Assembly: GCA_964016885.1 (NCBI GenBank)
Contig: OZ024750.1
Coordinates: 26,660,001-26,724,000 of the forward strand
DNA: 64,000 nt
Direction: 5' to 3'
DNA from: Eledone cirrhosa
Lineage: Eukaryota
The translations under genes and the position numbers were made by a program. Below the pieces are notes generated by a model, which made no database searches, was not told where the DNA came from, and saw only the letters and a program-made list of their open reading frames with translations. Below are positions 2,307 through 50,315 of this stretch, one piece after another. The stretch's first letter is position 1; every line of letters begins with the position of its first letter.

Positions 2307-2439
2307 AGAAAATGCGAGGTAGTTTCAGATATATTATCCATTTATTGAACGTACAGTAGAACGGAATGTAAATTACAGTATGAAACGTAGTAATTAGGCA
2401 AACAATTAGTTAATATCTTCTTCTATCATATGAATCAAA

Positions 2440-2750
2440 ACAAAACAAAAAGTTCTTCATCCTCAGTGTATACTGATTAATGTTCAGATCGATCCTTAGC
2501 ATTCTCGTGTAGCGCACATCCACCATCTGAGTAAGTTTCTTGGTCAGTGTCCCAGTCTCAGACCCATACAATAACACAGACTCCACTACAGCAACGAAGA
2601 GAAGGATCTTCAGGTCTCTACGAAGGTCTGATTTCCACACCGAGCTCAAACTGTGGCACGCCGCCCAGGCTTTGCTCTTCCACTCTACCACATCACCTTC
2701 TGTATTCCCAATTTGCTCCCAGATACAGGAAGTCCTCAACCAAGTCTAGC
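2440..2750 (-). mobile_element. RTE-like LINE fragment (post-RT region)
   Basis: ORF 2410-2739: KAWAACHSLSSVWKS..LFVAVVESVLLYGSET..LT..YTRMLR, the typical LLYG.ETW motif. Confidence 0.75.
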
Positions 2751-3275
2751 GGCTCCCCCCCCCCCTACATTAGTAATCTTCTCTGGCTTCTTAATATTCT
2801 CTACCATATACTTCATCTTAATCTCATTCATTCAAAGCCCCATACTAATCGACAGTCTCCACCTCCTGCATCAAATCCTATGCCTCCTTCACTGTGTTTT
2901 TCACCGGAACTATGTCATCGACAAATTAGTTATGTAGATTTCTAGCCAGTATAGAGAAGGTTAATGTGCTCAATGCATATAAGTTTTTAGACTAGCGAAC
3001 CATGCGATTAAATGTAATGAGAGATAGCTTAACAGTCGTATAATAAGCTGAGGAAAAACTGTTTTTAAAATGCTGGAGAGAATAACAAAGATTTATGAAT
3101 ACATGTATATATATTTAATGGCTGACAAGTATGGCAGCGAAAAAAATTTATAACAGCCATTTTGTGTGGCTGCTATAACGTCCTTTCACTTCCAACCTTT
3201 TAATATCAATATTCCACATTTTGGTGATATAATTTAATTCATGAATTAATATGTTATGAAGAATTTTCTTTTGTA

Positions 3276-3383
3276 GGCTCTGATGATAATAGTAATTTTT
3301 AATGGATTAATATCGATTTATATTCGATATCCCAACATGTATGTCCATCCTTACTGTGCAATATTCGAAAAAACTTGTCAGCC
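3276..3383 (+). ncRNA. Degenerate type I hammerhead motif inside inverted repeat 3067-3130/3373-3434
   Basis: ggct-CTGATGA...GAAAaaacttGTC-agcc; stem I has 4 bp, stem III is imperfect. Confidence 0.4.
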
Positions 3384-4405
3384 ATTAAATATATACATAT
3401 ATTTATAAATCTTTGTTATTCTCTCCAGCATTTTCAATAATATATATATTTATATATATATACGGATTAACAAATAATAGTTAAATGCAGTCTACTTAGG
3501 TGAAGTCCAGTTATGGTATTCCAGGTAGTGGATGATATTAACGCTTGGCTTGGTTTGACTCAACAAGGCGTTTTCATAGTGATGCTGCGGGTATGCTGTA
3601 ATTCCTATGTTGTAAACACTTGGAGTAATAATAAATCAGGAAAGAAAGTTTACATGGTTTGCTATACAAAACAGTTTTTAATCACATAGCTTACATTTGT
3701 TTCACTGAACTGGTATGTCTAGAGATCGCTATCCGCTTAATTTTGCGTTACTCGATCGCCAATACAGAATTATAACCAGTCAGATCTTCGGAGCATGCGA
3801 GAATGAAGAAAATACACAGGCAAGAAAAGAAAAGAAAATACAGGCTACTATATGAAGTAGTAATGGCAATCAATTAGAACAATAACAACAATTACAACAA
3901 TGCTATCAATAAATTATTTAAGGAGACCCTGACATTACTTAGGTGGGGGTATATAATGATATTGAGCTATTGTATATCCTTAGAAATGTTAAAAGGCTAC
4001 TTAACAATAAGTTAGAAAGATCTATCTTCTGCAGACCTAGAATAGCCACTAAATTCATAAGATTCAAACCCCCGTGAATCGAACCAACATAACATAGCTT
4101 TAAATTAGGATACCTACTACCCACAGAAATATATTCATTAAGTATACTATATCCTTCACAAGTCTATACCACACAATTGTCTGTAAGTACCTCATCTACC
4201 AACAATCTTACTCCTTCTCAGCTGCTGCCATCATTTGATCCTGAATCCTAGTTTTTCTCATTTCACTACTACAATGTTACTTTACCTTCTTTTTGCCATA
4301 ATTACAATTAGCACGCTTTTCTCTTTGCATGTATGTATATTTTTGTACGAGTGTATATTGATGTGTATGTATGTGTCTATGTACACATGCATGCGTATAT
4401 ATGTG

Positions 4406-27191: not shown

Positions 27192-29051
27192 ACGCCGTCT
27201 AGGCGGTTCCGCAGCCGACCCGTAGCCGGCGGATCGCCCTCGGGGGACTAGCAACGATCGCGGAAGATGCAGTTCGGCCAGGGGGTCCTGTCTATTATAT
27301 AGGGTAACCTTGGTCGGACGAGCTTAGTGAACGGAAGGGTGCTAGCCGTTGCAGCTTTCGGTTTACTGCGTAGGTTACGGGTTAGCAGTGTTCGGATATC
27401 CTATATGCGTCGTCGCCCTCGTCCACGACCCGCCCGCACGTTACAGCCCGTACCCGCTGCCATCGACGAATTTTTGCCTTTACAGACCGCCGCCGCCGTC
27501 GACCGACTGGACCCACGATAGAAGACGTTCGTTACCGCTGGAGCAATGCAAATTACTCCGCGGTTGACGCCAACCATGAGCGCCTTCCCGTCCGGGCGAC
27601 GTAAAAATCTGTAGCCTTTTCGCCGAACTCCTCGCGCCGCCTTCTCCTCGCCTATTTTTTGTTTCCTTTGGTTTTCGTTCTCTCGACGGCTAGCCGCATT
27701 TCGTGATCCGCCTTTCGATTGCGCTTCCGTCGCGGCAAAATAATTCCCTATCCAGACCGCCGCCGCCGTCGCCCGACCGGACCCACGATAGAAGACGTTC
27801 GTTACCGCTGGAGCAACGCAAATTACTCCTCGGTTGACGCCAAAAACGAACGCCTTCCCGCCCGGTCGACGTAAAAGTCTGAAGCCTTTTGGCCGAACGC
27901 CTCGCGCCATCGCTTCCTCCTCGCCTCTTTTTTTCGGTCGCTCGCCGACCCCCGGCCTCGACGATTAGCCGCCTTCCGAACGCCTTTCCGTCAAGGCAGT
28001 AGATACGCGTCCGTCGTAATCGCCGTCATTTTAACGCAGGAGCGCCGCCTAAATGCCCTGCACCGCGCTTGACGACGATCTACGACGGCGACGACGCGCG
28101 CACTCTTCCTGCTGCGACGAAGGTTTCGGCTTTTCGTCGTGGACCCGGTCAGGTCATGCCGCTGACCTCGCGTGGCGTCGCCACCGCCGCGGCGGGCTTG
28201 GGTTTAGCCGTAGCTACCCTCGTTTTGCCAACGGCGACGCGATATCTATGAAAGAGAGCGGCGTCGTCCCTCTCGAAGGGACACTGGCATCAAGTCCGGG
28301 TGTCCCTGCTTGCGCCGCTGCCTTTATCGGTCGGCGTCCAAGTTTGCCCCGGCATACCTAGCCGTTAGGTTACGCGACGCCGCGATTTTCGCTTTTGCGT
28401 TCGTCGTCGTCGTCGTCGTCTTCCTAACTCTCTTCCGTTGACCGCATTCCGCCGCCATGTCGAACCGATTTCTTTTTCCGTCGCTGTAACGGCGACAGCA
28501 GCTATTGAATCGAAAGCGGAGGGCGCCGACGCCGCCGCCGCTTCCTCCTCTTCCTCGACGCCGCATGCTGCTGCCGCCTCGGCATCACGCCTCGACTCGC
28601 ACTTACGCCCAGGGAAACGCTTCTGAAAGCGGCTTCGTGCGATGCCATCGGATTGTAAACCGTCTTGCGAGCTCGTTTTCGTTTGTTTGTTTCTTTCTTT
28701 CCTTCATCGCCGCCGAGGAGGAGGAAGAAGACTAAACGATTGGCCGGCAGTCGGGAGGCGATTGATTTCGTATTCGCCCGTTTCGCCGACGACGTCGCTG
28801 GGAGAGATCTGTTAGAGATGAGTAAATGCCGCCAAACGCGTCGCGCCGCGTCCTTCTTCTCCTCTCTTCGTTTCTTCCCCACCGGCTCGTGGACCGGTTG
28901 CCGACAGTTCCGTGTTTGTTTTTTTTTGCGTTTTCTCTTTCCGCCTACAGCGAGACGAGACGAAATTCGCTGCCGCCGCCGCTATTGCCTCCTTAGCGGC
29001 AGCACAATGCGCTTCTGTTCTCAGTCGTCGTTTTGTATTTCGTGCGGAAGA
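27192..29051 (+). other. rDNA upstream spacer and 5' external transcribed spacer
   Basis: Abrupt switch to GC-rich sequence continuous with the 18S start; internal ~170-bp duplication 27483-27653 / 27753-27926. Confidence 0.8.
27296..27304 (+). promoter_or_regulatory. Candidate RNA Pol I initiation site TATATAGGG
   Basis: Resembles the TATA-TAGGG start motif known from plant and arthropod rDNA; an AT island in GC-rich spacer about 1.75 kb upstream of 18S. Confidence 0.45.
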
Positions 29052-30720
29052 TACCTGGTTGATCCTGCCAGTAGTCATATGCTTGTCTCAAAGCTTAAGC
29101 CATGCAAGTGTAAGTTCATGCCGTAAACGAATGGTGAAACCGCGAATAGCTCAGAAACCGGACCTAATCCTCGGGACCGTATTCCTCACCGCGAGGAGAG
29201 TGGATAACTGTGGCAATTCTAGAGCTAATACATGCAACTGAGGCCGCGATCGCAGGTCGCACCCGGGAGTCGGGTTACAAACGCGCAGCATTCGTCGCTG
29301 TCGTCGTTCCGTCTTCCCGCGCGGTCCCAACAGACCACGTCGACACGGTCGGCCTTCGCATTGGTCGCGGCGCAAATATTAGACTGAGACCGACGACGCG
29401 TCGAATGCCGGCAGCGCCGTTCGCAGTTCGCTGTGTGCGGTCGCGCGGCCTCGCGAATCAATTCGACTTTGGTGACTCTGCATAACTGTCAGTACGATCG
29501 CACGGGCTTAGAATCGGTTCTGACCTTCGCGCGACGGGTCCCCCGCGAGTCCACCCTATCAACTGTCGACGGCCCGGTAAGTGCCGACCGTGGTGGCAAC
29601 GGGTAACGGGGAATCAGGGTTCGATTCCGGAGAGGGAGCATGCGAAACGGCTACCACATCCAAGGAAGGCAGCAGGCGTGCAAATTACCCACTCCCGGCA
29701 CGGGGAGGTAGTGACGAAAAATAACGACGCGGGGCTCTGTCGAGACCCCGCGATCGGAATGAGTACACTTCAAATCCATTAACGAGGATCGACCGGAGGG
29801 CAAGTCTGGTGCCAGCAGCCGTGGTAATTCCAGCTCCGGTAGCGTATATTAAAATTGTTGCGTTTGAAAAGCTCGTAGTCGGAATTCGGGTCTCGAAAGC
29901 GCGCTGCGTCGTCAGCGCGCTCGTGGCGACGGCGCCGTTGTCGTTCGCGCGCTGCGCGTCGACTTCGGTCGTCCGTTCGCACTCCCGGCCCTATTCGCCG
30001 GTGCGTGCGCGGTCGGGCCACAGAGCTCTGCGTGCATCGCCGCTCGGCGTCACGGTGCGGACGGCGCGTTTTTACCTTCTTGCTTCGCTTCTTGCTTTCT
30101 TCTTGCCTATTTTCCGTTGCGCGATCGGGGACGACGCGACGACGGCGCTTTGCTTTACCGCGGGCGTTGCCGTTCGCCTCTCGTTTTCGTCGCCGCGCTC
30201 CGGTCAGGGCTTGGGGTTCGTCTCGCTTGGCTTTATAGAGGTTCTTACGTCGTCGTGCCGTCACCTCGCCGCGGACGCGCGTTCACCTCGTGGTTTTGTT
30301 TTTCTCTGTCTACGCGGGTGCCTTTTTCTTTTCGAAAGGAGAGGTTCGTCGCCAGGGTTGGACACGACGGTGTGACCGGTTTCGTCGTCGTCGGCGCGTC
30401 GCTTTCCTGCGGCCGCCGTTTGTCGTCGTCGTTCCGTTTCACCGCCGATCCGCACGGTTCCTCCGAGGGTGCTCTTTACCGAGTGTCTGAGGCGGCCGGT
30501 ACGTTCACTGTGAAAAAATTAGAGTGCTCAGAGCGAGCCGCACCGGCTCGCATGGAATGATGGAAAATGGAATGATGGAAAATGGAATGATGGAAAATGG
30601 AATGATGGAAAATGGAATGATGGAAAATGGCCTCGCCGCGCGTCATCCGTCGGTCTCCGTTCACGACGAAGCAATGATCGAAGAGAGCGATCGGGGCCAC
30701 TCGTATTGCGACGTTAGAGG
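29052..30720 (+). rRNA. 18S rRNA: 18S rRNA 5' half (truncated, pseudogenised), with expanded V2 and V4
   Basis: TACCTGGTTGATCCTGCCAGTAGTCATATGCTTGTCTCAAAG; GGAGAGGGAGC..CCACATCCAAGGAAGGCAGCAGG; GTGCCAGCAGCC; conserved sequence stops after GTTAGAGG. Confidence 0.95.
30552..30630 (+). repeat. 5 x 15-bp tandem repeat ATGGAATGATGGAAA inside 18S
   Basis: Five exact units plus ATGG where 18S normally has one ATGGAATAATGGAA motif. Confidence 0.95.
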
Positions 30721-31551
30721 GATCGGTCGCGCGGCACGTCTGTACGCGAAGCGGTGAACCGGTACGGGGCTGTAGCGTTGGCGTCGGACTCGACGTTCGA
30801 GCGTCGGTCGGGTGGCCGGTTTACGCCCGTTTCGTTGCGTTAGTTTCGTTTTTCCTTGCCCTTCTTTCGGTTGGCGGTGAGGAGAGGGAGGAGGAAGGCG
30901 GCGGCGGCGGCTGCGGGTTGGTCGCGCGGAGGCGGACGGGATTGAAAGATTACCGCGGAGGAGGGATGAAGGCGCAGCAGACGGAGAGGCTTGTCGCCCG
31001 TAAGGGCGGCTTGTTTTTTTGCCCTGCTCGCTTTTGTTTTGTTTATTTCGGTTTTTTTTCTTTCCTTACTGTTCGTCGCTGCCGGCGGCTCGCGCGTCGT
31101 CGTCGTCGTCTTTTTTTCTTCGTTTTCTTCGTTTTTGTCGGTCGGAAACAAAAACGGGGGGCTTGGCGAGGCAAGCATGCGTAAGCGAGCGGCGTTTCGG
31201 TCGCTTTTTGTGACGTTCGGTGCGTAGTGGGCGCGAACAACACGGCTCCACGCCCGGGACACCGTGGAGCGACACGGCTTCGGGATCGTTGGCGCGTCGG
31301 TAGCTTCTTTCTTTCTTCTTCGCGAGGAGGAGGGCGGTTGCCGAGACGCGCGGCAGGCGTTCGGCCGGCGGCGAACAGTCAACTCGGAACTAGTACGGAC
31401 CGGGGGAATCCGACTGTATAATTAAAGCAGAGAATCGCGTAGCCGACCGAGCCGCATAGACGCGATGTGATTTCTGCCCAATGCTCTGAATGTCAAAGTG
31501 AAGAAATTCAACCAAGCGCGAGTAAACGGCGGGAGTAACTATGACTCTCTT
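30721..31551 (+). rRNA. 28S rRNA: 28S rRNA fragment (expansion segment D8 to the R2 site)
   Basis: GGGGAATCCGACTG..TAATTAAA..GTGATTTCTGCCCA.TGCTCTGAATGTCAAAGTGAAGAAATTCAACCAAGCGCG.GTAAACGGCGGGAGTAACTATGACTCTCTT; the D8 assignment of the GC-rich 5' part is by position. Confidence 0.9.
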
Positions 31552-31734
31552 TCCGGCGCCACCCTTGACGTGGGAAGAGAGCTTAAGTCCGTGGTTTGAG
31601 CTGTACGAGAGAGGCAGCTCTACCCCGCTTCCCTTTTTTATTTATTTATTTTTTTTTTTGCGGTGGTTAGGGTTGACTCGGCAGGTTTTACCATTCTCGA
31701 GTGGTCGGCCACATAAGACGAACAAAAAGGCGCC
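31543..31734 (+). ncRNA. Candidate HDV-like ribozyme at the 28S/R2 5' junction
   Basis: P1 GACUCUC (28S, from -13)/GAGAGCU with G.U at the start; P2 ggcgcc 31555-60/31729-34; P3 CCC/GGG closing the 7-nt loop UUGACGU; candidate catalytic C at 31723; several deviations from consensus. Confidence 0.4.
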
Positions 31735-34700
31735 TAAACTATGATGAATAACAATTCTGAATTCATACGGCAGCTGGGGGCCGAAAAGCCAGCGACCGGA
31801 GGGGTCGGGATGAGCCCTTCCTGCCTGTCACAGCGTTCTGTAAAGGCCCGCTGTGACAATTGGCAACCATCTCCGAGGGCTGGCAATGAGCCGGGCCATC
31901 TCCCTCGTAAGAGCGCCGGCTCGCTGGACTTGACCCACCGGATGATTTAGATACCGACGATAGTAATTCGTAGGGATACTCCCGATAAATTTACTCTGGA
32001 GTACGTGACTCACGCTTTGGTCTTGAGAGGCAAGCAACTGCCGTCGTGGCTGGCGCGGGACCCCGTGGACCCTGTCTGCGGGGTCGTGCCGACGGTCGCG
32101 GGGGAGGATTGTCTCGAAATTCCCTGTGAGAGTATAATGTTGTCTTGCTCTTACTGTTCGCGTCACTTCTCGGGCCCTTCTGGCTGGGCGGAGCATTTGC
32201 TTCGCTGTCATGGGCGGAAAATAGTTTACAGGTGTAGCAAATCCTGTAGGGAGAGTTGTCACCTTCATTCGCTCAGGGTGCACTCTGGTCGATGCACGGG
32301 CAGGAGATGGGACGAGATGTTCGCCGGCTCGGACTTGGTCCACAGGTGTGGGGAGTGCGACCGTGCTTTCCGGACGGTCGCAGGAAGATCGCAACACGAG
32401 AGGCATCGCCATCTAGTGGTTGCCAATCGCCGCAGGATCGCGAAGCACGCGGAGGAGATCGGGAAGAAGCGTGCCTCTCGTGCTGCAGCGGCTTCTCGTG
32501 AGGCTGCTGCGCAGCCCCACATTCGTGTTGGCCGTGGATGTTGGTCCGAGGAGGAGGTGTCGATCCTTCTTGAAAAAGAGGGCGAACTTCTTAGAGCGGG
32601 GTGTCGTCGTGTCAATATTGGGATCGCTCCTTTCCTGCCCGGAAAGACTGTGAAACAGATTAGTTCGAAGAGGAGCGATCTGAATAAGAGGAAACGCTGT
32701 AAACAGTCCCCTACCCGTACTGCTGGGTCGTTAGAGAGACGTCCGCCTAGCCAGGCGAGTGGAACGTCCATCCCGGTTGCCTCCAATGTCGAGTGGAGGA
32801 ACTTGTTTGGCGATGCAACGGAGCCGGGACGTTCTCGGTGGTCCGTTGCGTTCGCGGAGTGTCTTGTCACATTTTGTGATGAGATCACGAACGAGAACTG
32901 GGATGCGTTCGCTGAGTGTGTCGATGAAAGGGTAAACAGCATGCGCTTGAGCAGAAATACACGGAGAAAGAGTAAATTTAAAAGGCCCTATAAGAAGGCT
33001 GGTAGAAGGAATGAAAAGAGACTGCTCTACGCTCGCTACCAGTTTTTGTACGACCGTGATAGGAAGAAGCTCCTTACAGTAATTTTAGGGGAAGAGATGC
33101 AGGGGGTGTGTCCAGTCCCGATGGCGGACATCGCGTCTGCTTACGAGGACAGGTTTTCCATCCCGGGACCGGATGTGGATCTTAGCGCGTATCCCGCAAC
33201 GGAGGTGGTGAACAACGACTCGCTTTTGCGTCCCTTCACCGTGTCCGAGGTTGTGGGTGCGCGTAGGTGTATGGATCCGTATTCGGCTCCGGGTCCCGAC
33301 GGAATCACGCCCCAACAGGTACGCGCAGTCGGCCCTGCAACTTTGGTGAACCTATTTCACTGTTTGCTGCTATCCGGGAGAGTTCCCGATGTCTTGAAGC
33401 TTGGAAGGTCAGTCCTCATTCGCAAACAGATGGACGGCCCGATCGATCTTTCCAATTGGAGACCCCTGACGATATGCTCTGCCGTGTATCGTTTATACAC
33501 CAGGATTCTCTCCAAAAGAATGCTTCAGGTAACACCTTTGAACCCTGCTCAAAGAGGGTTTATTAATGCGGACGGCTGCGGTGAGAATTTGTTCTTACTG
33601 CGGCAACTAATCGGACGCACTATGGGTAGGCTAGCTCGATTGAGGATTCGGCAGTTGAACGTGGCCTTCTTGGACCTTGCCAAGGCCTTCGATACGGTTC
33701 CCCACTCACTGGTGTTTGCGGGCATGAGAAGACTTGGATTTCACGAGCACATGGTCGAAGTCGTGAGAGGTCTTTACGAAGGCTGTGTTACAAAATTCTC
33801 GGTCGGAGCGGAAACGAGCAGAGCCATCGTGATCAGGCGAGGAGTACGGCAAGGAGACGCCCTCTCGCCCCTTCTCTTCAATATAGCCACTGATCCGCTG
33901 ATGGATGTTTTGTCCAATGACTGTGGCTTACGGATTGGAGAGTTGGGTTTGTCGAGTCTGGCGTATGCGGATGACAATGCCCTAGTATCCGGCTCTTCGG
34001 TGGAGATGCAGCGCCTAGTTGACAGGTGCGTGTCTTTCTACCGGGAGATGGGGCTAGCGGTGAATGTCTCCAAATGCGCCACTTTCTCGATAAAAGCGTG
34101 GGGGAAGTCTTTCTTGGTCAACACGGACTCTGCCCCTGAGATTGATGGTATTCAGCTCTTGAGAATCGACCCGGCAGAGAAGTGTTCCTACTTAGGTGTC
34201 AGTGTCGGCCGGTGGTCGAACCTCGAGATGAATGTTTCGGTGGAACACGTGTCACAGTGTATCGATAAGATTTGCTGTGCTCCACTGAAACCCCAGCAGA
34301 AATTCCATCTGTTACAACAATATTACCTGCCTAGATTGTTTTACACTTTAGCGCAGGTGATGCCTGTCCGGATTAAACTTGAGGAGCTAGACGCGGCTAT
34401 TCGCACGGGGGCACGTAGGATTATGCATCTGCATGGATCGACCTCGGTTTCCTTCTTATACTGCAGCAGACGAGACGGTGGATTGGGTCTCTGCCATCTG
34501 GCGAAATTAATCCCATCCATCGTGATTCGAAAGAATCTTCGTCTGTTGGTCTCTCGATATGACGCGGTTCGTCTCATGGCGGAATCGGCGGGCTTTGCTG
34601 TGTGGAACAGCGAGATAGCGATGCGTTATGGTTTGCCTCCGGTTCCGCCGGGCGCGACCACGTATGCGCCTGATCTTAGGCGGGAATACGCCGAGGCCTG

Positions 34701-35373
34701 GGCGTCTCAGCCCGTCCAGGGTGCGTGTGCGGGGTCGTTCAGGGGCGACCGAATCGGTAACGATTGGCTGCTCCGCCCGGGTGTGGTTTCTGAGGGGACC
34801 TTGTTAAGTTGCCTTAAACTGCGAACCAATACGTTTCCCACCCGGGAATGCCTGTCCGGGGGATCATTGCCTCAGGTTTTTTGGGGTTTTTTTTTGTGCG
34901 CGTTAGAGCCTAGAATCTCTCTTCCTATTTCCGACTAACCAATTAACCCGGTAAGTGGTCGGATGGATAATCCGAGTGACGGAGAAGTAGGACGACTCCG
35001 CCGGTTCCGCGAGTCCGGGCGTTCGTATTGGGTGCACGATAGCACGCCCTCACGCCCCGCTTCAGGGTTACGCGTTGTTATTATGTTATTAATGTTGTTT
35101 ATTAATGTTTATTAATGTTTTTTTATAATAGGAGAGTAGGAAACATAGGTCTCGAAGCGCGTTACTTACGGGTGTCCGAGCGGTGCACGACCACCTTATT
35201 TTAATTTATGAAACAGAACAAGGATTAGACTTTATCTACCGGAAGCGACAGGGGCACGCCGTTCATGCCATAGTGTGCTTGATGGCGTTGGCCCGTGGGA
35301 CCTCCCACTTTAAAAACTGGGAAAGGCGTCTTATGTTTTTGTGATCAAAACATAAGTTAAATGCCAGCTATCG
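31552..35373 (+). mobile_element. R2: R2 non-LTR retrotransposon (three-zinc-finger, R2-A-like) at the canonical 28S site
   Basis: Lies between 28S ..GACTCTCTT and TAGCCAAATGCCTCGTCATC; ORF carries ZF, Myb and RT. Confidence 0.95.
32005..34938 (+). CDS. R2 ORF: R2 protein: CCHH-CCHC-CCHH fingers, Myb, RT; C-terminal CCHC/RLE endonuclease missing
   Basis: CSYC..HLLRCH, CSKSC..HSGRC, CGEC..HERHRH, WSEEE..KTVKQISSKR, APGPDG, QRGF, FLDLAKAFDTVPH, GVRQGDALSP, YADD, YLGV, KLRTNTFPTR; in frame with ATG 31741 across one TAG. Confidence 0.93.
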   Translation: MTHALVLRGKQLPSWLARDPVDPVCGVVPTVAGEDCLEIPCESIMLSCSYCSRHFSGPSGWAEHLLRCHGRKIVYRCSKSCRESCHLHSLRVHSGRCTGRRWDEMFAGSDLVHRCGECDRAFRTVAGRSQHERHRHLVVANRRRIAKHAEEIGKKRASRAAAASREAAAQPHIRVGRGCWSEEEVSILLEKEGELLRAGCRRVNIGIAPFLPGKTVKQISSKRSDLNKRKRCKQSPTRTAGSLERRPPSQASGTSIPVASNVEWRNLFGDATEPGRSRWSVAFAECLVTFCDEITNENWDAFAECVDERVNSMRLSRNTRRKSKFKRPYKKAGRRNEKRLLYARYQFLYDRDRKKLLTVILGEEMQGVCPVPMADIASAYEDRFSIPGPDVDLSAYPATEVVNNDSLLRPFTVSEVVGARRCMDPYSAPGPDGITPQQVRAVGPATLVNLFHCLLLSGRVPDVLKLGRSVLIRKQMDGPIDLSNWRPLTICSAVYRLYTRILSKRMLQVTPLNPAQRGFINADGCGENLFLLRQLIGRTMGRLARLRIRQLNVAFLDLAKAFDTVPHSLVFAGMRRLGFHEHMVEVVRGLYEGCVTKFSVGAETSRAIVIRRGVRQGDALSPLLFNIATDPLMDVLSNDCGLRIGELGLSSLAYADDNALVSGSSVEMQRLVDRCVSFYREMGLAVNVSKCATFSIKAWGKSFLVNTDSAPEIDGIQLLRIDPAEKCSYLGVSVGRWSNLEMNVSVEHVSQCIDKICCAPLKPQQKFHLLQQYYLPRLFYTLAQVMPVRIKLEELDAAIRTGARRIMHLHGSTSVSFLYCSRRDGGLGLCHLAKLIPSIVIRKNLRLLVSRYDAVRLMAESAGFAVWNSEIAMRYGLPPVPPGATTYAPDLRREYAEAWASQPVQGACAGSFRGDRIGNDWLLRPGVVSEGTLLSCLKLRTNTFPTRECLSGGSLPQVFWGFFLCALEPRISLPISD

Positions 35374-36008
35374 TAGCCAAATGCCTCGTCATCTAATTGG
35401 TGACGCGCATGAACGGATCATCGAGATTCCCACTGTCCTTATCTACTGTCCAGCGAAACTACAGCCAAGTTGAGCCTGTTGAGGTTGACTCTAGTCCGGT
35501 TTTGTGAGGGCACACGGTAGGCGTAGCATAGGCGGGAGCAATCTTGCGTCTCTCGGCAGGCGGCAGCGTCGCTTGCGGGTCGCTTGCGGCTTTGCAGCGG
35601 CGTTCGCCATCTGTCGGGTACCGTGCGCGTTTGCGTCGATGAAAAACCGCCACTTCCGTAGTTTCTTCGCTCACTCGATTGAGAAGGGACGGGGCCGTCG
35701 CCGAGCGGTGGTTCATTTATCTGGTGCGAAGCGTGCGGTGCATGTCGCGCGCGCACACGTTGTGCGCCGACGCAGCCGATGCGCGACCCTTAGTCGAGAA
35801 CAGTGTCGGTCGGGGCGTTTGACTGGGGCGGTACGTCTGTCAAAGGGTAACGCAGGTGTCCCAAGGCGAGCTCAGCGTGGACGGAAACCACACGTTGAGC
35901 AAAAGGGCAAAAGCTCGCTCGATCTCGATTTTCAGTACGAATACGGACCGCGAAAGCGTGGCCCATCAATCCTTTCCGAATAGCGGCGAGCTATGCGTCC
36001 GCCGAGAA

Positions 36009-36047
<39 letters not shown>

Positions 36048-36070
36048 GGCCAATCGTTCGCAGCGACGTC

Positions 36071-36108
<38 letters not shown>

Positions 36109-36150
36109 CGAAGCAGAATTCGCAAAGCGTTGGATTGTTCACCCACTAAC

Positions 36151-36197
<47 letters not shown>

Positions 36198-36746
36198 TCC
36201 TACCGATGCATTGCGTGTAGGCGGCGGCGGTGGCGGCTGCAGCCACCTTCTCGAAGGCGGCTGCGGTCGGCGTCGCCGCCGGCAACGTCAACTCGGCTAC
36301 GGCTATCCCGTCCAGTACGAGAGGAACCGCGGGATCAGAGCAACGGTTTGCGCGCTCGTTCGATAGAGCGGTGGTGCCAGGCTGCCTCTGAGCGATAACG
36401 GCTGAACGCCTCTAAGCCGGAACCGTAGCCGGACCCGAGTTGTTTTTCTAAAGCGTCTCAACCTTTTTAAGGCGCATGCCTTAGTTTGGCGATTGCCGTC
36501 CGTTCGGCGAAGTCGCTTCCCTTTTCGGGGTGCGCGTCGTCGTCGGCGGCAGCGTCAGCGGAATTGCCATTCTGTGACGACTATGACTCGTCGTCGTCGT
36601 TGTCGTCCGTTCGATTTGTTGAAAGAGATCGAGACGAAAAGGATCGCTTGTATACGACTCGACTTGCCGTTCGGAGTGACGTGCTTAGTAGAGCAGCTAC
36701 CACACTGCGATCTATTGAGTCTCTTCTCACGAACGACACGATCCGC
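35374..36746 (+). rRNA. 28S rRNA: 28S rRNA 3' part (R2 site to 3' end), with a small internal deletion
   Basis: TAGCCAAATGCC; TTTGACTGGGGCGGTA; CCACAGGGATAACTGGCTTGTGGC; sarcin-ricin loop AGTACGAGAGGAAC at 36314-36327; GAGCAGCT..CTGCGATCTATTGA; 3' end approximate. Confidence 0.93.
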
Positions 36747-37138
36747 CCATCGAAGCGGCAAGCAGAAAGGGAAAAGAAAATTCGAAAGCGGCTAAGGAAG
36801 TTACGAACGAACGAGAGATAGCAGCTACCGGGTTGGAACACTGACGCGACTTTCTTTCGACGGGTTAGCGTAGCAACGACGACGACGACACATACGTACA
36901 TACAAACAAGTCCGCTCCGTGCGGGCGTCAGCCGCCGATCGATCGGTTCGTTCTTTTAACAGTTCCGCCGCTGCTACTGCTACCCACCAACCAGTCCGCG
37001 CGCCAACTTTTACGACGAGTTCAGTCGCTCGCTCGTTTGCCAGGTTGCGCCAACGACCCTCAAAGTCGATTAGCATCGAAAGAAGAGAGAGTTCACGGTA
37101 AATGCGACACAGCCTTGGTTCGAGTGCCGCCGATCCGT

Positions 37139-37455
37139 CTGTCTACACGTAAAACTAACTTGGAAGGCGGACGACGGATGGGCGGCGTGTATCACAGACA
37201 GACACACACACAGGCTGTCTACACGTAAAACTAACTTGGAAGGCGGACGACGGATGGGCGGCGTGTATCACAGACAGACACACACACAGGCTGTCTACAT
37301 GTAAAACTAACTTGGAAGACGGACGACCGATGGGCGGCGTGCATCACAGACAGACACATAGACAAGTCGTCAATAACTAAAACTAACTTGGAAGACGGAC
37401 GACGTGTATCACAGACAGACACACACACACGCTGTCTACACGTAAAACTAACTTG
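37139..37455 (+). repeat. rDNA spacer subrepeats, 76-bp unit, about 4 copies
   Basis: ctgtctacacgtaaaactaacttggaaggcggacgacggatgggcggcgtgtatcacagacagacacac.. starts at 37139, 37215 and 37291, followed by variant and partial units. Confidence 0.9.
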
Positions 37456-37724
37456 TAATATCTATGGTTAGGGGGAAGTGTTTGGATACACAATCTTTAA
37501 TCTCTCGAGAAGTTACTTCCCATGAAACCACCCTCTAATTAGTAAGGTAAATATGCCCTTTGGCAGCCATCTTGTTACCCATAGGCAGATCTCACACAAT
37601 GCAGCCTCGACAGATGAGTACTGCTTGTTTATGGCTGACAGCTGATGAAACAAAGGCACCATAGTAAAAACTAATATATGGAACATTATATTATGTAACA
37701 TTATTTTAATTTATATTCCTTTGA

Positions 37725-37843
37725 GTTCCGATGAGCCACTCTGTTTTTAAATATGTTAATTATTTTCAACTGAACCAGATCAAATATGATACATAGTCAT
37801 CTGATCCAGAAATATTATACGGAGTAGCGAAACAATTTTAAAC
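37725..37843 (+). ncRNA. Degenerate long-stem-II hammerhead motif
   Basis: gtt-CCGATGA-gccactctgt...acggagtagc-GAAAC AATT TTA-aac; two core changes. Confidence 0.4.
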
Positions 37844-38164
37844 GGGCATTATTATTATTAATATTATTATTATTATTATTCTCTATATTCCTTACATCAA
37901 ACTAAATATGTTGACAATCTTTTAATAATGTCTTCCTTGTGAAATTTGTGGTCTTGTTTTGCTTAACTAATGAATATTTCCAGCTCTGCGCACCTAAGCT
38001 CTGCATGAACCCAGCCACCTAGCTGCTTTCTACTGCATATTGCACATTGAGCACATGCCTTTACGCTTTGGCTTCTAACTAACTCACCAATCTTTCCTCT
38101 CATATCTCCTCTACTATCTCAATCTCTCTCTTTAAGATTGGTTACTCTTGAACTGTGTATATAC

Positions 38165-38256: not shown

Positions 38257-40134
38257 GTAGGGATGGGGGACTTCAATGCACATCTCAGTAAGGAGGGCAG
38301 TGAAGTCCTTGCTGGTACTTCCATAACAACACCAACCGAAATGTATGACTACTGAGAGACACCCTGCTGGAGGCGAACTTGATAGCGACCAACCTAAGGT
38401 TTAGGAAGAATCCGGGTAAGATGTGGACCTACATCTCAAATATGCACCTCTCCAAGTCCCAGATTGATTTCATTCTGGCGAGGAAAATGTGGCGGAATAG
38501 TGTTCTGAACACAGAACCTACAACTATTTCAGTACACTGGGCAGTGACCACCGGCTTGTTATTAGTGAGGTCCGGGTGAGCTTAAGAAAGAGCAAGGCTC
38601 AGCACCGGAGGGCATCTATGAATGGGGAGCTTTCAAGGAAGATGATAAGCTACAGGAGAGGTTCACAGTGGAAGTGAGGAACAGGTTCAGTGCTCTGTGT
38701 GGAGAGTCAGAGGAGAGAGAGATTGGATGGACTGAGGAGAGTGTGACGAGGTGATACGGGTACTTCACCAATGCAGTGGCGGAAGCAAGTGAAATCCTGG
38801 TGCCGAGGAAAAAGAACAAAAGGAAGAACGTCAGCTCTGCAAACCCAAAAGTGTGTGCAGCCAGAGAACACCTGAGAGCTGCCAAGGACCAATTCTATGC
38901 TGATCCTACGGAGGAGATGATGGAGACTGTGGAGGTGACGAGGGAAGAACTCTGTACTGCTTACACTGAGGCCAGAGAGGAAGCACTGATAGAGAAGATC
39001 AGAAGTGTGAAGATAGCGGTTGACAGATCTGGATGTAAGGAGAGCTGGATGATCATCAACGAGATCACAGGGAGGAAGAGAAGGTGTTCGAGTCAGATCC
39101 AGGGAACGGGGCCCGAGGATAGGAAGAGGAAATGGCTAGACCATTTTAGGACCCTACTAGGAGAGCCACCCTCCACAGCCCAGAGCACTGGGGAGATCAG
39201 GCGGCTGTTTGAGGAACTGGATATTGAGACAGAGCCCTTCACCAGAGAGGAGCACAAGAGAGCCAAGAAGAGGATCAAGGAGGGCAAGGCTCATGGACAA
39301 GAGGCATCAGAGGTGATAAAGAGGTGTGATTTTGATGATATCATCCAGGGGTTCTGTAACCGGGCACTGGAGAAAGGAGTTGCCCCGAATCAGTGGAGGA
39401 TCAGTAACATCGTCCCAGTGTCAAAGAAGGGAGATCTCTCTAACACCAACAACTACAGGGGGATCTCACTGACGTCACTTGTGGCAAAGATCCTCAACAG
39501 GATGATTCTTAACAGGATCCAGCCTGAGATGGAGAAGAAGCTCAGGGACAACCAGAACGGCTTCAGAGAGGGAAGATCAACCACCAGTCACATCCTGATG
39601 CTGAGGAGGATATTAGAGGGAGCTAGAGCAAAGTGAATTCCTGCTGTCATGGTTTTCATTGACTTTAGGAAGACCTTTGATTCTGTGGATCGTCACTGCC
39701 TGATGAATATCTTTCAGGCTTATGGAATCCCCAAGAAGATAGTGGACCTGATATCATTGCTTCACACCAACACCAAAGCCCAATTTATTACACCTGATGG
39801 GATGACAGAGTTCTTTGAGATACTGGCTGGAGTGCTCCAGGGAGCCACATTCGCTCCCTACCTTTTTATCATTCTAGTGGACTATTGTATGGGCCTTGCA
39901 CTGGAGAAACACCAGGACTCTAGCTTTACTGTAGCACCGGCTCAGAGCAGGAGAGTTAAGGCGAAAAAGGTATCAGATGCTGAATTTGCCGACGACATAG
40001 TTTTGGTGACAAATACAGTGAAGGAGGCAGAGGATTTGATGCGGGAGGTTGAGACTGTGTCGATGAGTGTGGGGCTGAGAATGAATGAGACTAAAACAAA
40101 ATATCTGGTAGAGAATGTTGAGAATGATCACTAG
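38255..40134 (+). mobile_element. RTE-like LINE (APE C-terminus plus RT), disrupted
   Basis: MGDFNAH, SQIDFIL, NYRGISL, QNGFR, FIDFRKTFDSV, GVLQG, EFADD; stop at 39634-39636. Confidence 0.9.
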
Positions 40135-46256: not shown

Positions 46257-49200
46257 GTCAACGCGATCAGTCGCATATTTGGGCGGGGGAGAGTATTTAT
46301 TAAATTTAAGATGAATACTATCTCCGACAGTAATGCCACATCTACAGTCATGTTGAATAACTGGTTATTCTTCTAACTATATCTTTTGAAGACACCTTTT
46401 ATTCGAATTGGTCGAGATATCCGACTAAATACATAATTCATTTTACAAGGATTTGCTACAAACAGCATGGCTGAACACAACATCAACAACAATATTAAGG
46501 AAGTACCGAAAACAAATAACAAGGAAGGTAAACAAACTATATTCAGTTGTAGCTCCAGAAGAAACCGAAATTATAAATCGCATTTCTCTTGGAGTTGCGA
46601 ACTTAATAATGATTTATCTAATTGTTATAAAATGGCAAAAAACAATCCCTCCATTGGCTATATGAACAGAATGAAGCTACACTGTGACAAAATACACCCA
46701 GAGCTAAATTATTTCACAGCGAAACAATTACGCCAACAAGCGTCGTTTGTTGAACGTAAACATAAGATAAATATTATTAATTATAAGTCCCCCACAACAA
46801 ACATGTTATCAACAACACGTGCTACAGGTCGCCATGCTACTAGACTTCCTAGCAGCCAGGTCGAACAGCGCCTTGAAACAACTTTGCCTGTAAGAAACTT
46901 GACACAACTTGTACCATCTAAGTCTACCTCGAATGCTGGGGAAAACACTATCGATAATAATAATAATCGAAGAAATTTGACACCACGTGTACCATCCAAG
47001 TCTACCTCGACTGTAGTGGAAAATACTATCGATAATGATAATAATCAAAAGTATAAACAATTGAAATTTTCCCTCGACGAAATCTTCCAGGAAGAAATTA
47101 ATTCATGTATAAATATCTCTCTTGCTGAACGTATTAAAACGACAATGTTTCATAAAAAAACAAATAATGAAATATTACGTGTTATTGACGAAATAGGGGA
47201 TGAATATTTACGACGGATAAAAACCCAACATTTTGGCAAATCAACGCCTGTTTATATGCCTTAGCAACGACAGTGAAGTATTATCTTGGTGATAGCAGAG
47301 ATATCAACAAGAACAGAACACCACCAAAAATACCATCATATATAACTAAAAGAGAAAAAAAGATTGATGACCTACGAAAAAACATAGGATATGTGACAAT
47401 GCTCCTTACATGCAAACAAACACAAAAACACCTCATTCCTCACCAACAAAGAGTGAAAAATAAAATAGAGACGATGTTGGGTAACAGTAGAACCAGAACT
47501 CTCCAATATAAGCTGATCACCATTAAACAAGAATTTTGAGCTGTTAGTGAAAAACGCCGATACCTGAAGAAGGTAAATGAAAGAAAAGTGCTTAATAAAA
47601 GATTCAGACGAAACCAAACATCAGTCTATAGAGATATGATGGGCAAAATAATAAGTGTCACTGAGGCCCCATCCCAGAAAGACATAGATTCCATTTGGAG
47701 CAAAATATGGTGTGAAAAGAACAATTTCAACCAATATGCAGTGTAGCTAAGAGAAATCCGAAAGAATTATTGCTCCTACACTACAACAAAAGCATACGAA
47801 ATAAGTGAGGGTACCCTTTAAACTGTGATAGGAAAACTCCAAGATAAGAATACACCAGGAAGAGACACGATTGTCGGCTACTGGTACAAAAAAATGATAT
47901 TCTATCTGAGGTATCTTACTGACCTCTACCAAAATGTTTTTAAGGGATATACACTTATACCAGAATGGTTGGCATTAGCAAAAACATTACCCTATCCCCA
48001 AGAAAAAAGACACCCACTTGGCAAAAAACTAACAACCCATTGCATGGCAGAACCTGATATATAAGATGTATACAGCCTACCTGAACCTATTCCTCCAAGA
48101 TCACTGTGAAATTAATAACATCATCACAGATGAACAAGTAGCTGGAAAGAAAGGAGTTTGGGGATGTGCTGAACAACTCCCAATCAACAAAATTGCGATG
48201 TCGGAGGTGCGACAACTTAGGAAGGATATGGCTACAGTCTGGCTGGACTACAGGAAAGCTTTCAATTCTGTTCCCCACTCTTGGATGATAGAGGCCCTCT
48301 AACTTGCTAAAGTCCCAGACATTATTGTCAGAGCCATAGAGAGACTCTCTTCTTCTTGGGCTACTATCTTAAGGTTAAATACAGGGAGGGAGGATTCTAT
48401 TTTCACTGATAAAATAAAATATTGCACGGGTATATTTCAGGGAGACAGTCTCTCTGTGATATTATTCATCTTGTCATTAAACCCCTTGTCCTTTTTGTTC
48501 AAGAAATGTGAGGGATACATCATTGGCTCACAGGAGGACAGAAATACGAACCTAACCGATAATTTCTTTGAGGACGATCTGAAACTCTATGCCAAGAACA
48601 TGGATGGGATGAAGAAAAATCTTGACCTGATTACAACGTTCTTAAAGGATATAGGAAAGGAGTTTGGCCAAGATAAATGCTCATACATGACTGTAAAGCG
48701 GGGAAAAACAACAACCAAATCTAGCAACATTGTCATCAATGGCCTGGGGATAGATGAGAACATATCCTATAATGGTATCTGTAATAAAGAACGCATAACC
48801 AGGGAATACTACACCCGATTAAGAAAAATCTGGTCATCGGAACTCTCTGCGCAAAACAAAACAGTGGCTCACAATGTGTTTTCTGTGCCTGTCCTAACAC
48901 CAACGTTTGGAATACTCAATTGGACGATAGACGAAATCCGAGCAGTTGATGTTGGAACTCGAAAGACACTAAAAACACCGGAAACTTCCACATCAACACT
49001 GACATAAACCGCCTTTACTTGAAACGTAAGCAGGGAGGGAGAGGCCTAACATCAATCGAAGCAACAATTGAATGTCGCATCATATCTCTCCGACAACATC
49101 TACGAACCTCGAAGCGTAGGAGCCCGTTTCTCGAGAAAGTCTATCTACATGAAACAGATAAGATCATGAGAGTTGGGAAGAAACTCTTCGAGAGATATTC

Positions 49201-50315
49201 CCTGTGTGATAATCAAAAACTCACACCCAGGGAAGTCGCTCAGCAGTATCGCAGTGAATCCATGGCTGAAAAACTACATACTTATCAGCAAAAAATCATC
49301 CATGGATATGTTGCCAGGAAGCTCCAGAGTGAGAGTAATATAGATAAGGAAAGTAGTCTATCTTGGAACAACAACCGCTATATTGGCTCACACTTTGAAG
49401 GATACGCTTTTGCAATTCAAGAACAGGAGATTAACACGAAATACCTGATTCACAAAAAGATAGGGATGCAGGCAAAACACCTAGATGTGATAACAAGTGC
49501 AGACTCTGCAGAACTAACATCGAGGATCTCACCTATGTCATGAGCAACTGTCCAAAGATGTCAACGCGGTACTCTCTACCTATGAGGCATGATGTAGTGG
49601 CCAAAACACTGTACAATGCAGTTCGTAAAAAAAATAGCCCCGATAATAAACATTAAAAGCTACAGCAATGTGGAAGACATCCATGTACATAATATGAAAG
49701 AGTACTGGTGGAATGTTCCAGTAAAACCCCCAATAAAATTCAGGCATAACAGACCAGATATTATGATATGGGACAGGGAGAAGAAAGCATTCACACTAGT
49801 GGAAATTAGCTGCCCAGCAGGTGCCAATATAGTATCAAAGATTAGTGAAAAGGAGAATATTTATGCAGAACTGATGAGAAATCTGCAGATACTCCACCCT
49901 GATTACACCTTCAGATTTATGCCTGTGATTATTGGGGTACTGGGGTATGTTAGTAACTGCCTCAATACAAATCTTGAGAAGCTATGTTTCACAGGAACAG
50001 AAAGAACACAACTAGTTAGGAAATTACAAGTACAATCCATTAATGGAACAGTAAAAATATGTAAACCATTCCAAATATTTTGCATCTAATAACTGCATAT
50101 ACACATGTACAGATGCAAAGCATATACACATGCACACATACAACTCAAAACATCCCCATCCACACATACAATAGCATCCATATCTACACATGCATGCATA
50201 CATACATATCTACCTAGTTGATGTTGTGTAAATTCCAATGAGAGTCTTGTGTCTATGTGAGAAACCGACTCTCTCTCTATTGGTAAAACTTTGTGAAATT
50301 ATAAAACCAGAAGAG
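46257..50315 (+). mobile_element. R4/Dong-type RLE non-LTR retrotransposon, full length but disrupted
   Basis: N-terminal Myb-like WSCELN..GYMNRM..QLRQQ; WLDYRKAFNSVPHSW, GIFQGDSLS, FEDDLKL, GGRGL, AIQEQEINT, CRLC...C, RHD, RPDI..VEISCP; many stops and frameshifts. Confidence 0.9.

Follow-up and report, generated by a model that had tools for sequence, protein, structure and literature searches.

The R2 element and its host rDNA fragment

The sequence studied here (the window) is a stretch of 64 kb on the plus strand of one contig (C10:26660001-26724000) of a 3.0-Gb assembly with 1796 contigs. It contains an R2 retrotransposon that is inserted in what remains of an rDNA unit. The features of the element and of its host unit are given below in window coordinates.

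29055-29850, plus strand: 5' 600 nt of the 18S gene (SSU model positions 4-605, Rfam), all that clearly remains of the SSU gene
30486-30774: weak 18S match (model positions 733-974, Rfam)
31380-31553, plus strand: 28S flank 5' of R2, ending in ...GACTCTCTT, without the AAGG found at the uninserted site
31554-35373, plus strand: R2 element, complete at both ends and internally deleted; sibling copies begin to align at 31551-31565 and finish at the 28S junction
31951-34854, plus strand: genuine R2 coding sequence of 968 codons, with N-terminal zinc fingers, a Myb-like region, the reverse transcriptase (RT), and a linker to ...FPTRECL
32953-32954, plus strand: site of a private 18-bp in-frame deletion, the sole private indel in a MAFFT alignment with 10 sibling copies
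34851-34855, plus strand: deletion junction with ~630 bp gone (CCHC, restriction-like endonuclease (RLE), stop codon, and ~117 nt of 3' UTR missing)
34855-34938, plus strand: 27 read-through codons of former 3' UTR and a TAA stop (ORF listing and sibling comparison)
34939-35373, plus strand: what is left of the 3' UTR, ending at the precise 28S junction and sharing 74-87% identity with the 3' UTRs of siblings
35373-35404: 28S (model positions 2279-2310, Rfam)
35374-36744, plus strand: 28S 3' of R2, a pseudogene that differs by ~1.8% substitutions and has lost 31 bp near 35469 (Rfam LSU model)
35455-36744: 28S (model positions 2391-3399, Rfam)

The stop-to-stop ORF of the element (31951-34938, plus strand) encodes 995 aa. 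Pfam places RVT_1 at residues 494-751 (E=1.2e-30) and gives a weak match to a zinc finger at residues 64-86. The architecture is that of R2, namely a single ORF in which C2H2-type and Myb-like columns align with those of the relatives and the RT is central. The database proteins closest to it are R2-like, full-length (1100-1400 aa), and 33-42% identical; one of them is source-named Ciona intestinalis (Q76IP0), and others are named R2. In an alignment with full-length proteins (n=7), the identity of the window protein was 33-35% with six relatives and 24% with the R2 protein of Ciona.

The element occupies the canonical 28S insertion site. Its 3' junction is precise and reads ...CAGCTATCG/TAGCCAAATGCC (the slash marks the junction), and the uninserted 28S copy L033 reads ...CTCTTAAGG/TAGCCAAATGCC, or ...GACTCTCTTAAGG/TAGCCAAATGCC in a longer reading across the site. 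Downstream of R2, the 28S sequence continues from 35374 as TAGCCAAATGCCTCGTCATC..., and Rfam LSU matches lie directly 3' of the element. At the 5' junction AAGG has been lost, and the flank ends 4 bp short of that of L033. This 5' flank shows about 7 differences from L033 in ~170 bp when the two sequences are compared by eye, and is 95.6% identical to the flank of the R2 copy L046. Both termini align with full-length siblings. Rfam returned no ribozyme family at E<=1 in 28000-38000, although diverse R2 ribozymes may escape the Rfam models, and no Rfam family of R2 3' UTRs gave a match. The initial annotation, which was made from the sequence of the window, had described the retention of both UTRs, a structured 3' UTR, and a precise 3' junction. 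The exact junction and the completeness of the element at both ends stand, but the 3' UTR has lost its first ~117 nt, and the remainder folds only slightly better than its shuffles (z = -2.0).

The host unit has itself lost much of its sequence. The 3' half of 18S, 5.8S, and approximately the first 2100 model positions of 28S were undetected by Rfam in the unit, and the only other 28S sequence in it is ~170 bp just upstream of R2. There was no match to further rRNA in the 64-kb window, and no other 28S on C10 was present among the matches listed. The R2 host unit is a lone, gutted rDNA fragment (window 29055-31553 and 35374-36744) outside any array. A short tandem repeat, read as GMMENGMMEN... 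or WNDGKWNDGK..., is found at ~30530-30720 within the gutted part.

Compared with the 28S copies on C25, C12, and C2, which share 99.6-100% identity with one another, the 28S sequence 3' of the element shows 18-20 substitutions per ~1070 bp in addition to the 31-bp deletion. Up to 36450 there are 19 private 28S substitutions; nine of them cluster in 35374-35484, the ~110 bp next to the R2 3' junction, beside the 31-bp deletion at ~35469, and some of these may be alignment noise. The near-identical 28S copies L032-L036 (G000:C25, C12, C2) are located on several chromosomes. Three kinds of element 3' end occur at the same 28S site: L032, L035, and L036 carry one type, L034 carries another, and the window carries a third; L033 is uninserted.

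Other reverse transcriptase sequences are also present in the window. A second, unrelated RLE-type LINE remnant lies at 48168-50086 (plus strand), with an RT at 48303-49004 (Pfam RVT_1). Its CCHC knuckle and RHD are in the frame of 49474-49635, and its PD..E..K..Y core is in the ORF 49598-50086. These pieces are in different frames, which indicates that the remnant is frameshifted, and they match a custom CCHC/RLE profile (described below) weakly (E=3e-4 and 0.017). An RLE of the R2 element in another frame, or displaced within the window, was considered and rejected, as the sole CCHC/RLE-like signal (49.47-50.09 kb) belongs to this different LINE. At 38755-40131 (plus strand) there is a broken reverse-transcriptase fragment that consists of two adjacent ORFs (RVT_1, E=3e-8 and 2e-17).

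Loss of the CCHC knuckle and the endonuclease

The window protein follows seven full-length R2 proteins through LRTNTFPTRECL (up to ...KLRTNTFPTRECL) and then diverges. It lacks ~185 alignment columns (about 1215-1400), in which CxxC..H..C, RH, PD, D, and K..KY are present in 7/7 relatives. In place of the C-terminal domain there are 27 unrelated residues, followed by a stop. The residues SGGSLPQVFWGFFLCALEPRISLPISD are a reading of former UTR sequence.

Pfam proved unusable as an RLE detector, since RVT_1 (PF00078) alone was reported even for full-length R2 relatives; tblastn and a custom profile with positive controls were therefore used instead. The custom CCHC/RLE profile HMM was built from alignment columns about 1215-1400. 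It gave nothing at E<=10 in the six frames of 34700-35500. Applied to siblings, the same profile detected L038 (E=2.3e-44), L037 (5.3e-42), L039 (9.8e-40), and L040 (7.9e-36), a range of 8e-36 to 2e-44, and it matched L046 partially (positions 4-61). Searches by tblastn with eight C-terminal domains produced no match beyond 34875 inside the element. Regular expressions and frame reading revealed no CCHC or PD..D/E..K..K pattern in the six frames of 34840-35373, where RH occurs by chance and on the minus strand only. The absence of the CCHC knuckle and the RLE, first proposed in the initial annotation together with an HMM search for the latter, is confirmed by the alignment, six-frame reading, tblastn, and the profile with its sibling controls. 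The C-terminal CCHC and PD-(D/E)XK endonuclease are absent from all six frames of this copy and present in its siblings; the copy has lost domains that the family has.

Comparison with other genomic copies delimits the missing segment. When window:34600-35373 was compared with the genome DNA, the other copies matched in two blocks that meet at query position 255 (window 34854). The spacing between the blocks was 588-634 bp in 10/11 sibling copies measured and 237 bp in the remaining one. In L008, L015, and L018, where the frame is open, the extra stretch comprises 170 codons, a stop, and then 116-117 nt of 3' UTR, and it contains the motifs CRRCG..H....C, RHD/N, PDL, DVTV, and KVRKY. Because siblings carry 588-634 bp with the domain, the stop codon, and UTR sequence at 34854, the window copy must have lost ~630 bp.

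The left breakpoint reads ..GGGAATGCCTG/GCGAGAGG in siblings and the right breakpoint ..CTTGCCGG/GTCCGGGGGATGATTGCC, and the corresponding sequence in the window is GAATGCCTG/TCCGGGGGATCATTGCC. The junction has a microhomology, TGCC(T/G)G, that is short and imperfect; the nearest copies differ by 8-12%, and the ancestral bases are hence approximate. The earlier description of an ORF that runs into non-coding sequence and stops is correct in outline, but the boundary has to be redrawn. The last genuine codon is the L of ECL (34852-34854), and 'SGG' and the 24 codons that follow already belong to the former 3' UTR.

Decay of other R2 copies

The R2 family of this genome is old and diverse; its copies are 70-92% alike and are scattered with rDNA fragments over many chromosomes. 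Contig C386 carries an R2 lineage that is ~70% identical to the window ORF. Eleven other R2 copies were fetched, and all of them are broken, with a longest frame of <=655 aa. Alignment breaks relative to the window suggest private internal deletions of ~1.2 kb in L038, ~230 bp in L043, and ~150 bp in L042. The copy L046 / L007 (G000:C4:236745000-236751300) has its own ~390-bp deletion within the RLE, by which PD..D..K was lost while CCHC and RH were kept. Endonuclease sequence has been lost independently in at least two R2 copies. Because private deletions occur in the host rDNA and in several R2 copies, deletion is the ordinary route by which these R2 copies decay.

Search for further copies of the deletion

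A 91-nt probe across the junction was compared with the assembly. It matched at least 20 places, counts from the genome searches being lower bounds because at most 40 candidates are scored, and one of the 20 listed, the window itself, spans the junction. Eighteen places end at query position 44-45, and one extends to 54 at 83% identity. For ORF bases 32000-34000, the best other match listed is 88% identical over the full length and 90% over parts. The corresponding values are 92% for the last 255 bp of the coding sequence and 87% for the 3' UTR. Among the matches listed in the assembly, none is a close relative of the window copy, and none shares its deletion. A deletion shared by multiple copies with variable 5' junctions, which is the pattern of short internally deleted elements (SIDEs), was not observed among these matches (1/20 for the probe, no copy listed above 92%). 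In the initial annotation, a deletion unique to this copy was taken to speak against a propagating derivative; such uniqueness was looked for in the assembly and was found.

Read data were also used. One sample, sequenced in three runs, gave window-specific Logan contigs with depths of about 10 (run X1), 5.6, and 4, values that are uncalibrated against single-copy depth. Matches of read contigs to the window break off at 34851/34854, from where the contigs run on into the CCHC sequence that other copies have, and none of the contigs listed, which are short, bridges 34854. In the RAD-seq run X4, 3 reads match the window, all of them partly.

The long open frame

The frame of 995 aa is the longest among the 12 R2 copies examined, the others being limited to <=655 aa. 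In the MAFFT alignment with 10 siblings, 82 of the 3282 sites that can be compared carry a substitution private to the window copy. The ORF contains 67 of the 82, distributed over codon positions 1/2/3 as 20/16/31, and these comprise 32 synonymous and 35 non-synonymous changes. Random changes with the observed 70% transitions were simulated, and ~20 synonymous changes of 67 were expected versus the 32 seen (P(>=32) = 0.001). The synonymous excess on the private branch implies that part of this branch ran under purifying selection. It would fit divergence before the insertion, at a time when the R2 lineage was presumably still active.

The open frame itself can be explained without selection. 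In simulations with 67, 52, and 30 random changes, the frame stayed free of stop codons with a probability of 0.135, 0.21, and 0.40, respectively, so that a frame of this length is expected by chance with P about 0.14-0.4. At the 1.8% divergence of the flank, simple arithmetic gives a neutral expectation of ~52 changes in 2904 bp, of which ~35 are non-synonymous, and this is the number observed. Selection on the truncated ORF was rejected as a candidate explanation, since the simulation and the flank divergence account for both the open frame and the synonymous excess.

Origin of the deletion

The present structure was very probably produced by a private deletion after insertion, that is, by the simple decay of one dead R2 copy in an isolated rDNA fragment. 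This was one of the two options raised in the initial annotation, and it is supported by the uniqueness of the junction, by the lack of a close copy among the matches listed, and by the private deletions in the host unit and in other R2 copies. The ~630 bp with the CCHC knuckle and the RLE would most likely have been lost in a single private event during neutral decay. Loss in the DNA probably proceeded via the short microhomology, by end joining or by slippage during replication, and the 31 bp of 28S, the 18 bp of the ORF, and several kb of the rDNA unit would have disappeared in the same way. Such a copy could no longer cut its target, and the remaining long frame would be a leftover without function.

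An unlikely alternative origin is that the deletion was already present in the RNA or cDNA at insertion, either because the donor was internally deleted or because the RT switched template during target-primed reverse transcription (TPRT). An intact R2 of the same lineage would then have installed the copy in trans, once or a few times, and no family would have been founded. The intact ends at the canonical 28S site and the ordinary 5' junction with its loss of AAGG are as in TPRT products, and the synonymous excess is evidence that the lineage remained active until shortly before the insertion. In addition, the study by Eickbush and Eickbush (2012, PMC3414825) describes the mobilisation of SIDEs in trans and template jumps by the R2 RT in vivo. 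However, no second copy with the junction is found among the matches listed, and ~117 nt of 3' UTR have gone together with the domain. Moreover, the other deletions in the host rDNA must post-date the insertion, so that a post-insertion origin needs no extra assumption. The initial annotation had also proposed a non-autonomous derivative mobilised in trans, with a protein that could act as a dominant-negative or as a nick-dependent RT, and no positive evidence for this option was obtained in the assembly and read searches. A propagating, long SIDE-like family with its other members in unassembled rDNA is highly improbable. rDNA arrays are often under-assembled or collapsed, and copies with the deletion could be missing from the assembly; both element ends are kept, and window-specific read contigs reach a non-trivial, though uncalibrated, depth (about 10 in run X1). 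Against this, a single one of the 20 junction matches spans the junction, and no copy listed reaches 93% anywhere in the 1796 contigs, the rDNA-bearing ones included. The 28S host is ~1.8% diverged and gutted, which argues against a fresh insertion from an active family.

It is harder still to believe that an endonuclease-less protein with zinc fingers, Myb, and RT has been kept open and is expressed from this stray rDNA fragment, whether to compete with active R2 as a dominant-negative, to regulate it, or to serve as an RT at nicks that already exist. The uninterrupted frame of 995 codons, longer than that of any other of the 12 copies, and the synonymous excess among the private changes (P=0.001) speak for such a function. 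Nevertheless, a frame of this kind stays open by chance at P = 0.14-0.40, and the 35 private non-synonymous changes equal the neutral expectation for the age of the flank. The frame ends by accident in former UTR sequence. Furthermore, it is located in a lone gutted rDNA unit, of which only approximately the first 600 nt of 18S and the last part of 28S clearly remain, and no close paralogue or conserved copy is found among the matches listed. Private decay after insertion is thus preferred. Nothing in the window copy points to propagation, or to selection since the deletion. Internally deleted, dead non-LTR retrotransposons in rDNA pseudogenes are routine and already known; the case in itself matters little, and it is of some use for genome annotation.

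Comparison with known R2 systems

R2 elements are non-LTR retrotransposons, namely 28S-specific LINEs that bear an RLE. The window element shares with them the canonical 28S site (...CTCTTAAGG/TAGCCAAATGCC) and a single ORF with zinc fingers, a Myb-like region, and an RT. Govindaraju et al. (2016, PMC4838377) map the CCHC, RH, PD-D, and K..KY motifs to the CCHC and PD-(D/E)XK endonuclease of R2Bm, and the sibling copies share these R2Bm motifs. What sets the window copy apart from the R2 norm is the loss of the CCHC knuckle, of the entire RLE, of the original stop codon, and of ~117 nt at the start of the 3' UTR, together with its location in a decayed lone rDNA fragment and not in an array.

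Internally deleted and degenerate R2 derivatives have been described in other systems. In SIDEs, as characterized by Eickbush and Eickbush (2012, PMC3414825), a 5' ribozyme is joined to the R2 3' end, and the elements occur in multiple copies with variable 5' junctions. The window copy resembles them in that a full-length R2 has been internally deleted with its 5' and 3' ends kept. Unlike SIDEs as described there, it is short of no more than 630 bp and retains most of its ORF, and its junction occurs in a single copy among the matches listed. According to Martoni et al. (2015, PMC4370867), who prefer genomic turnover to retrotransposition as the explanation of its spread, R2Br-deg of Bacillus rossius is a full-length, non-functional R2 that persists in 28S, coexists in the rDNA with a functional element, and replicates there. 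Both R2Br-deg, on that account, and the window copy are degenerate, non-functional R2 elements in 28S sequence, whereas the window copy is unique and lies outside any array. With its endonuclease domain absent and no SIDE-like family apparent, the window element can be classified as an R2 remnant, a member of R2 by its insertion site, its ORF architecture, and its siblings.
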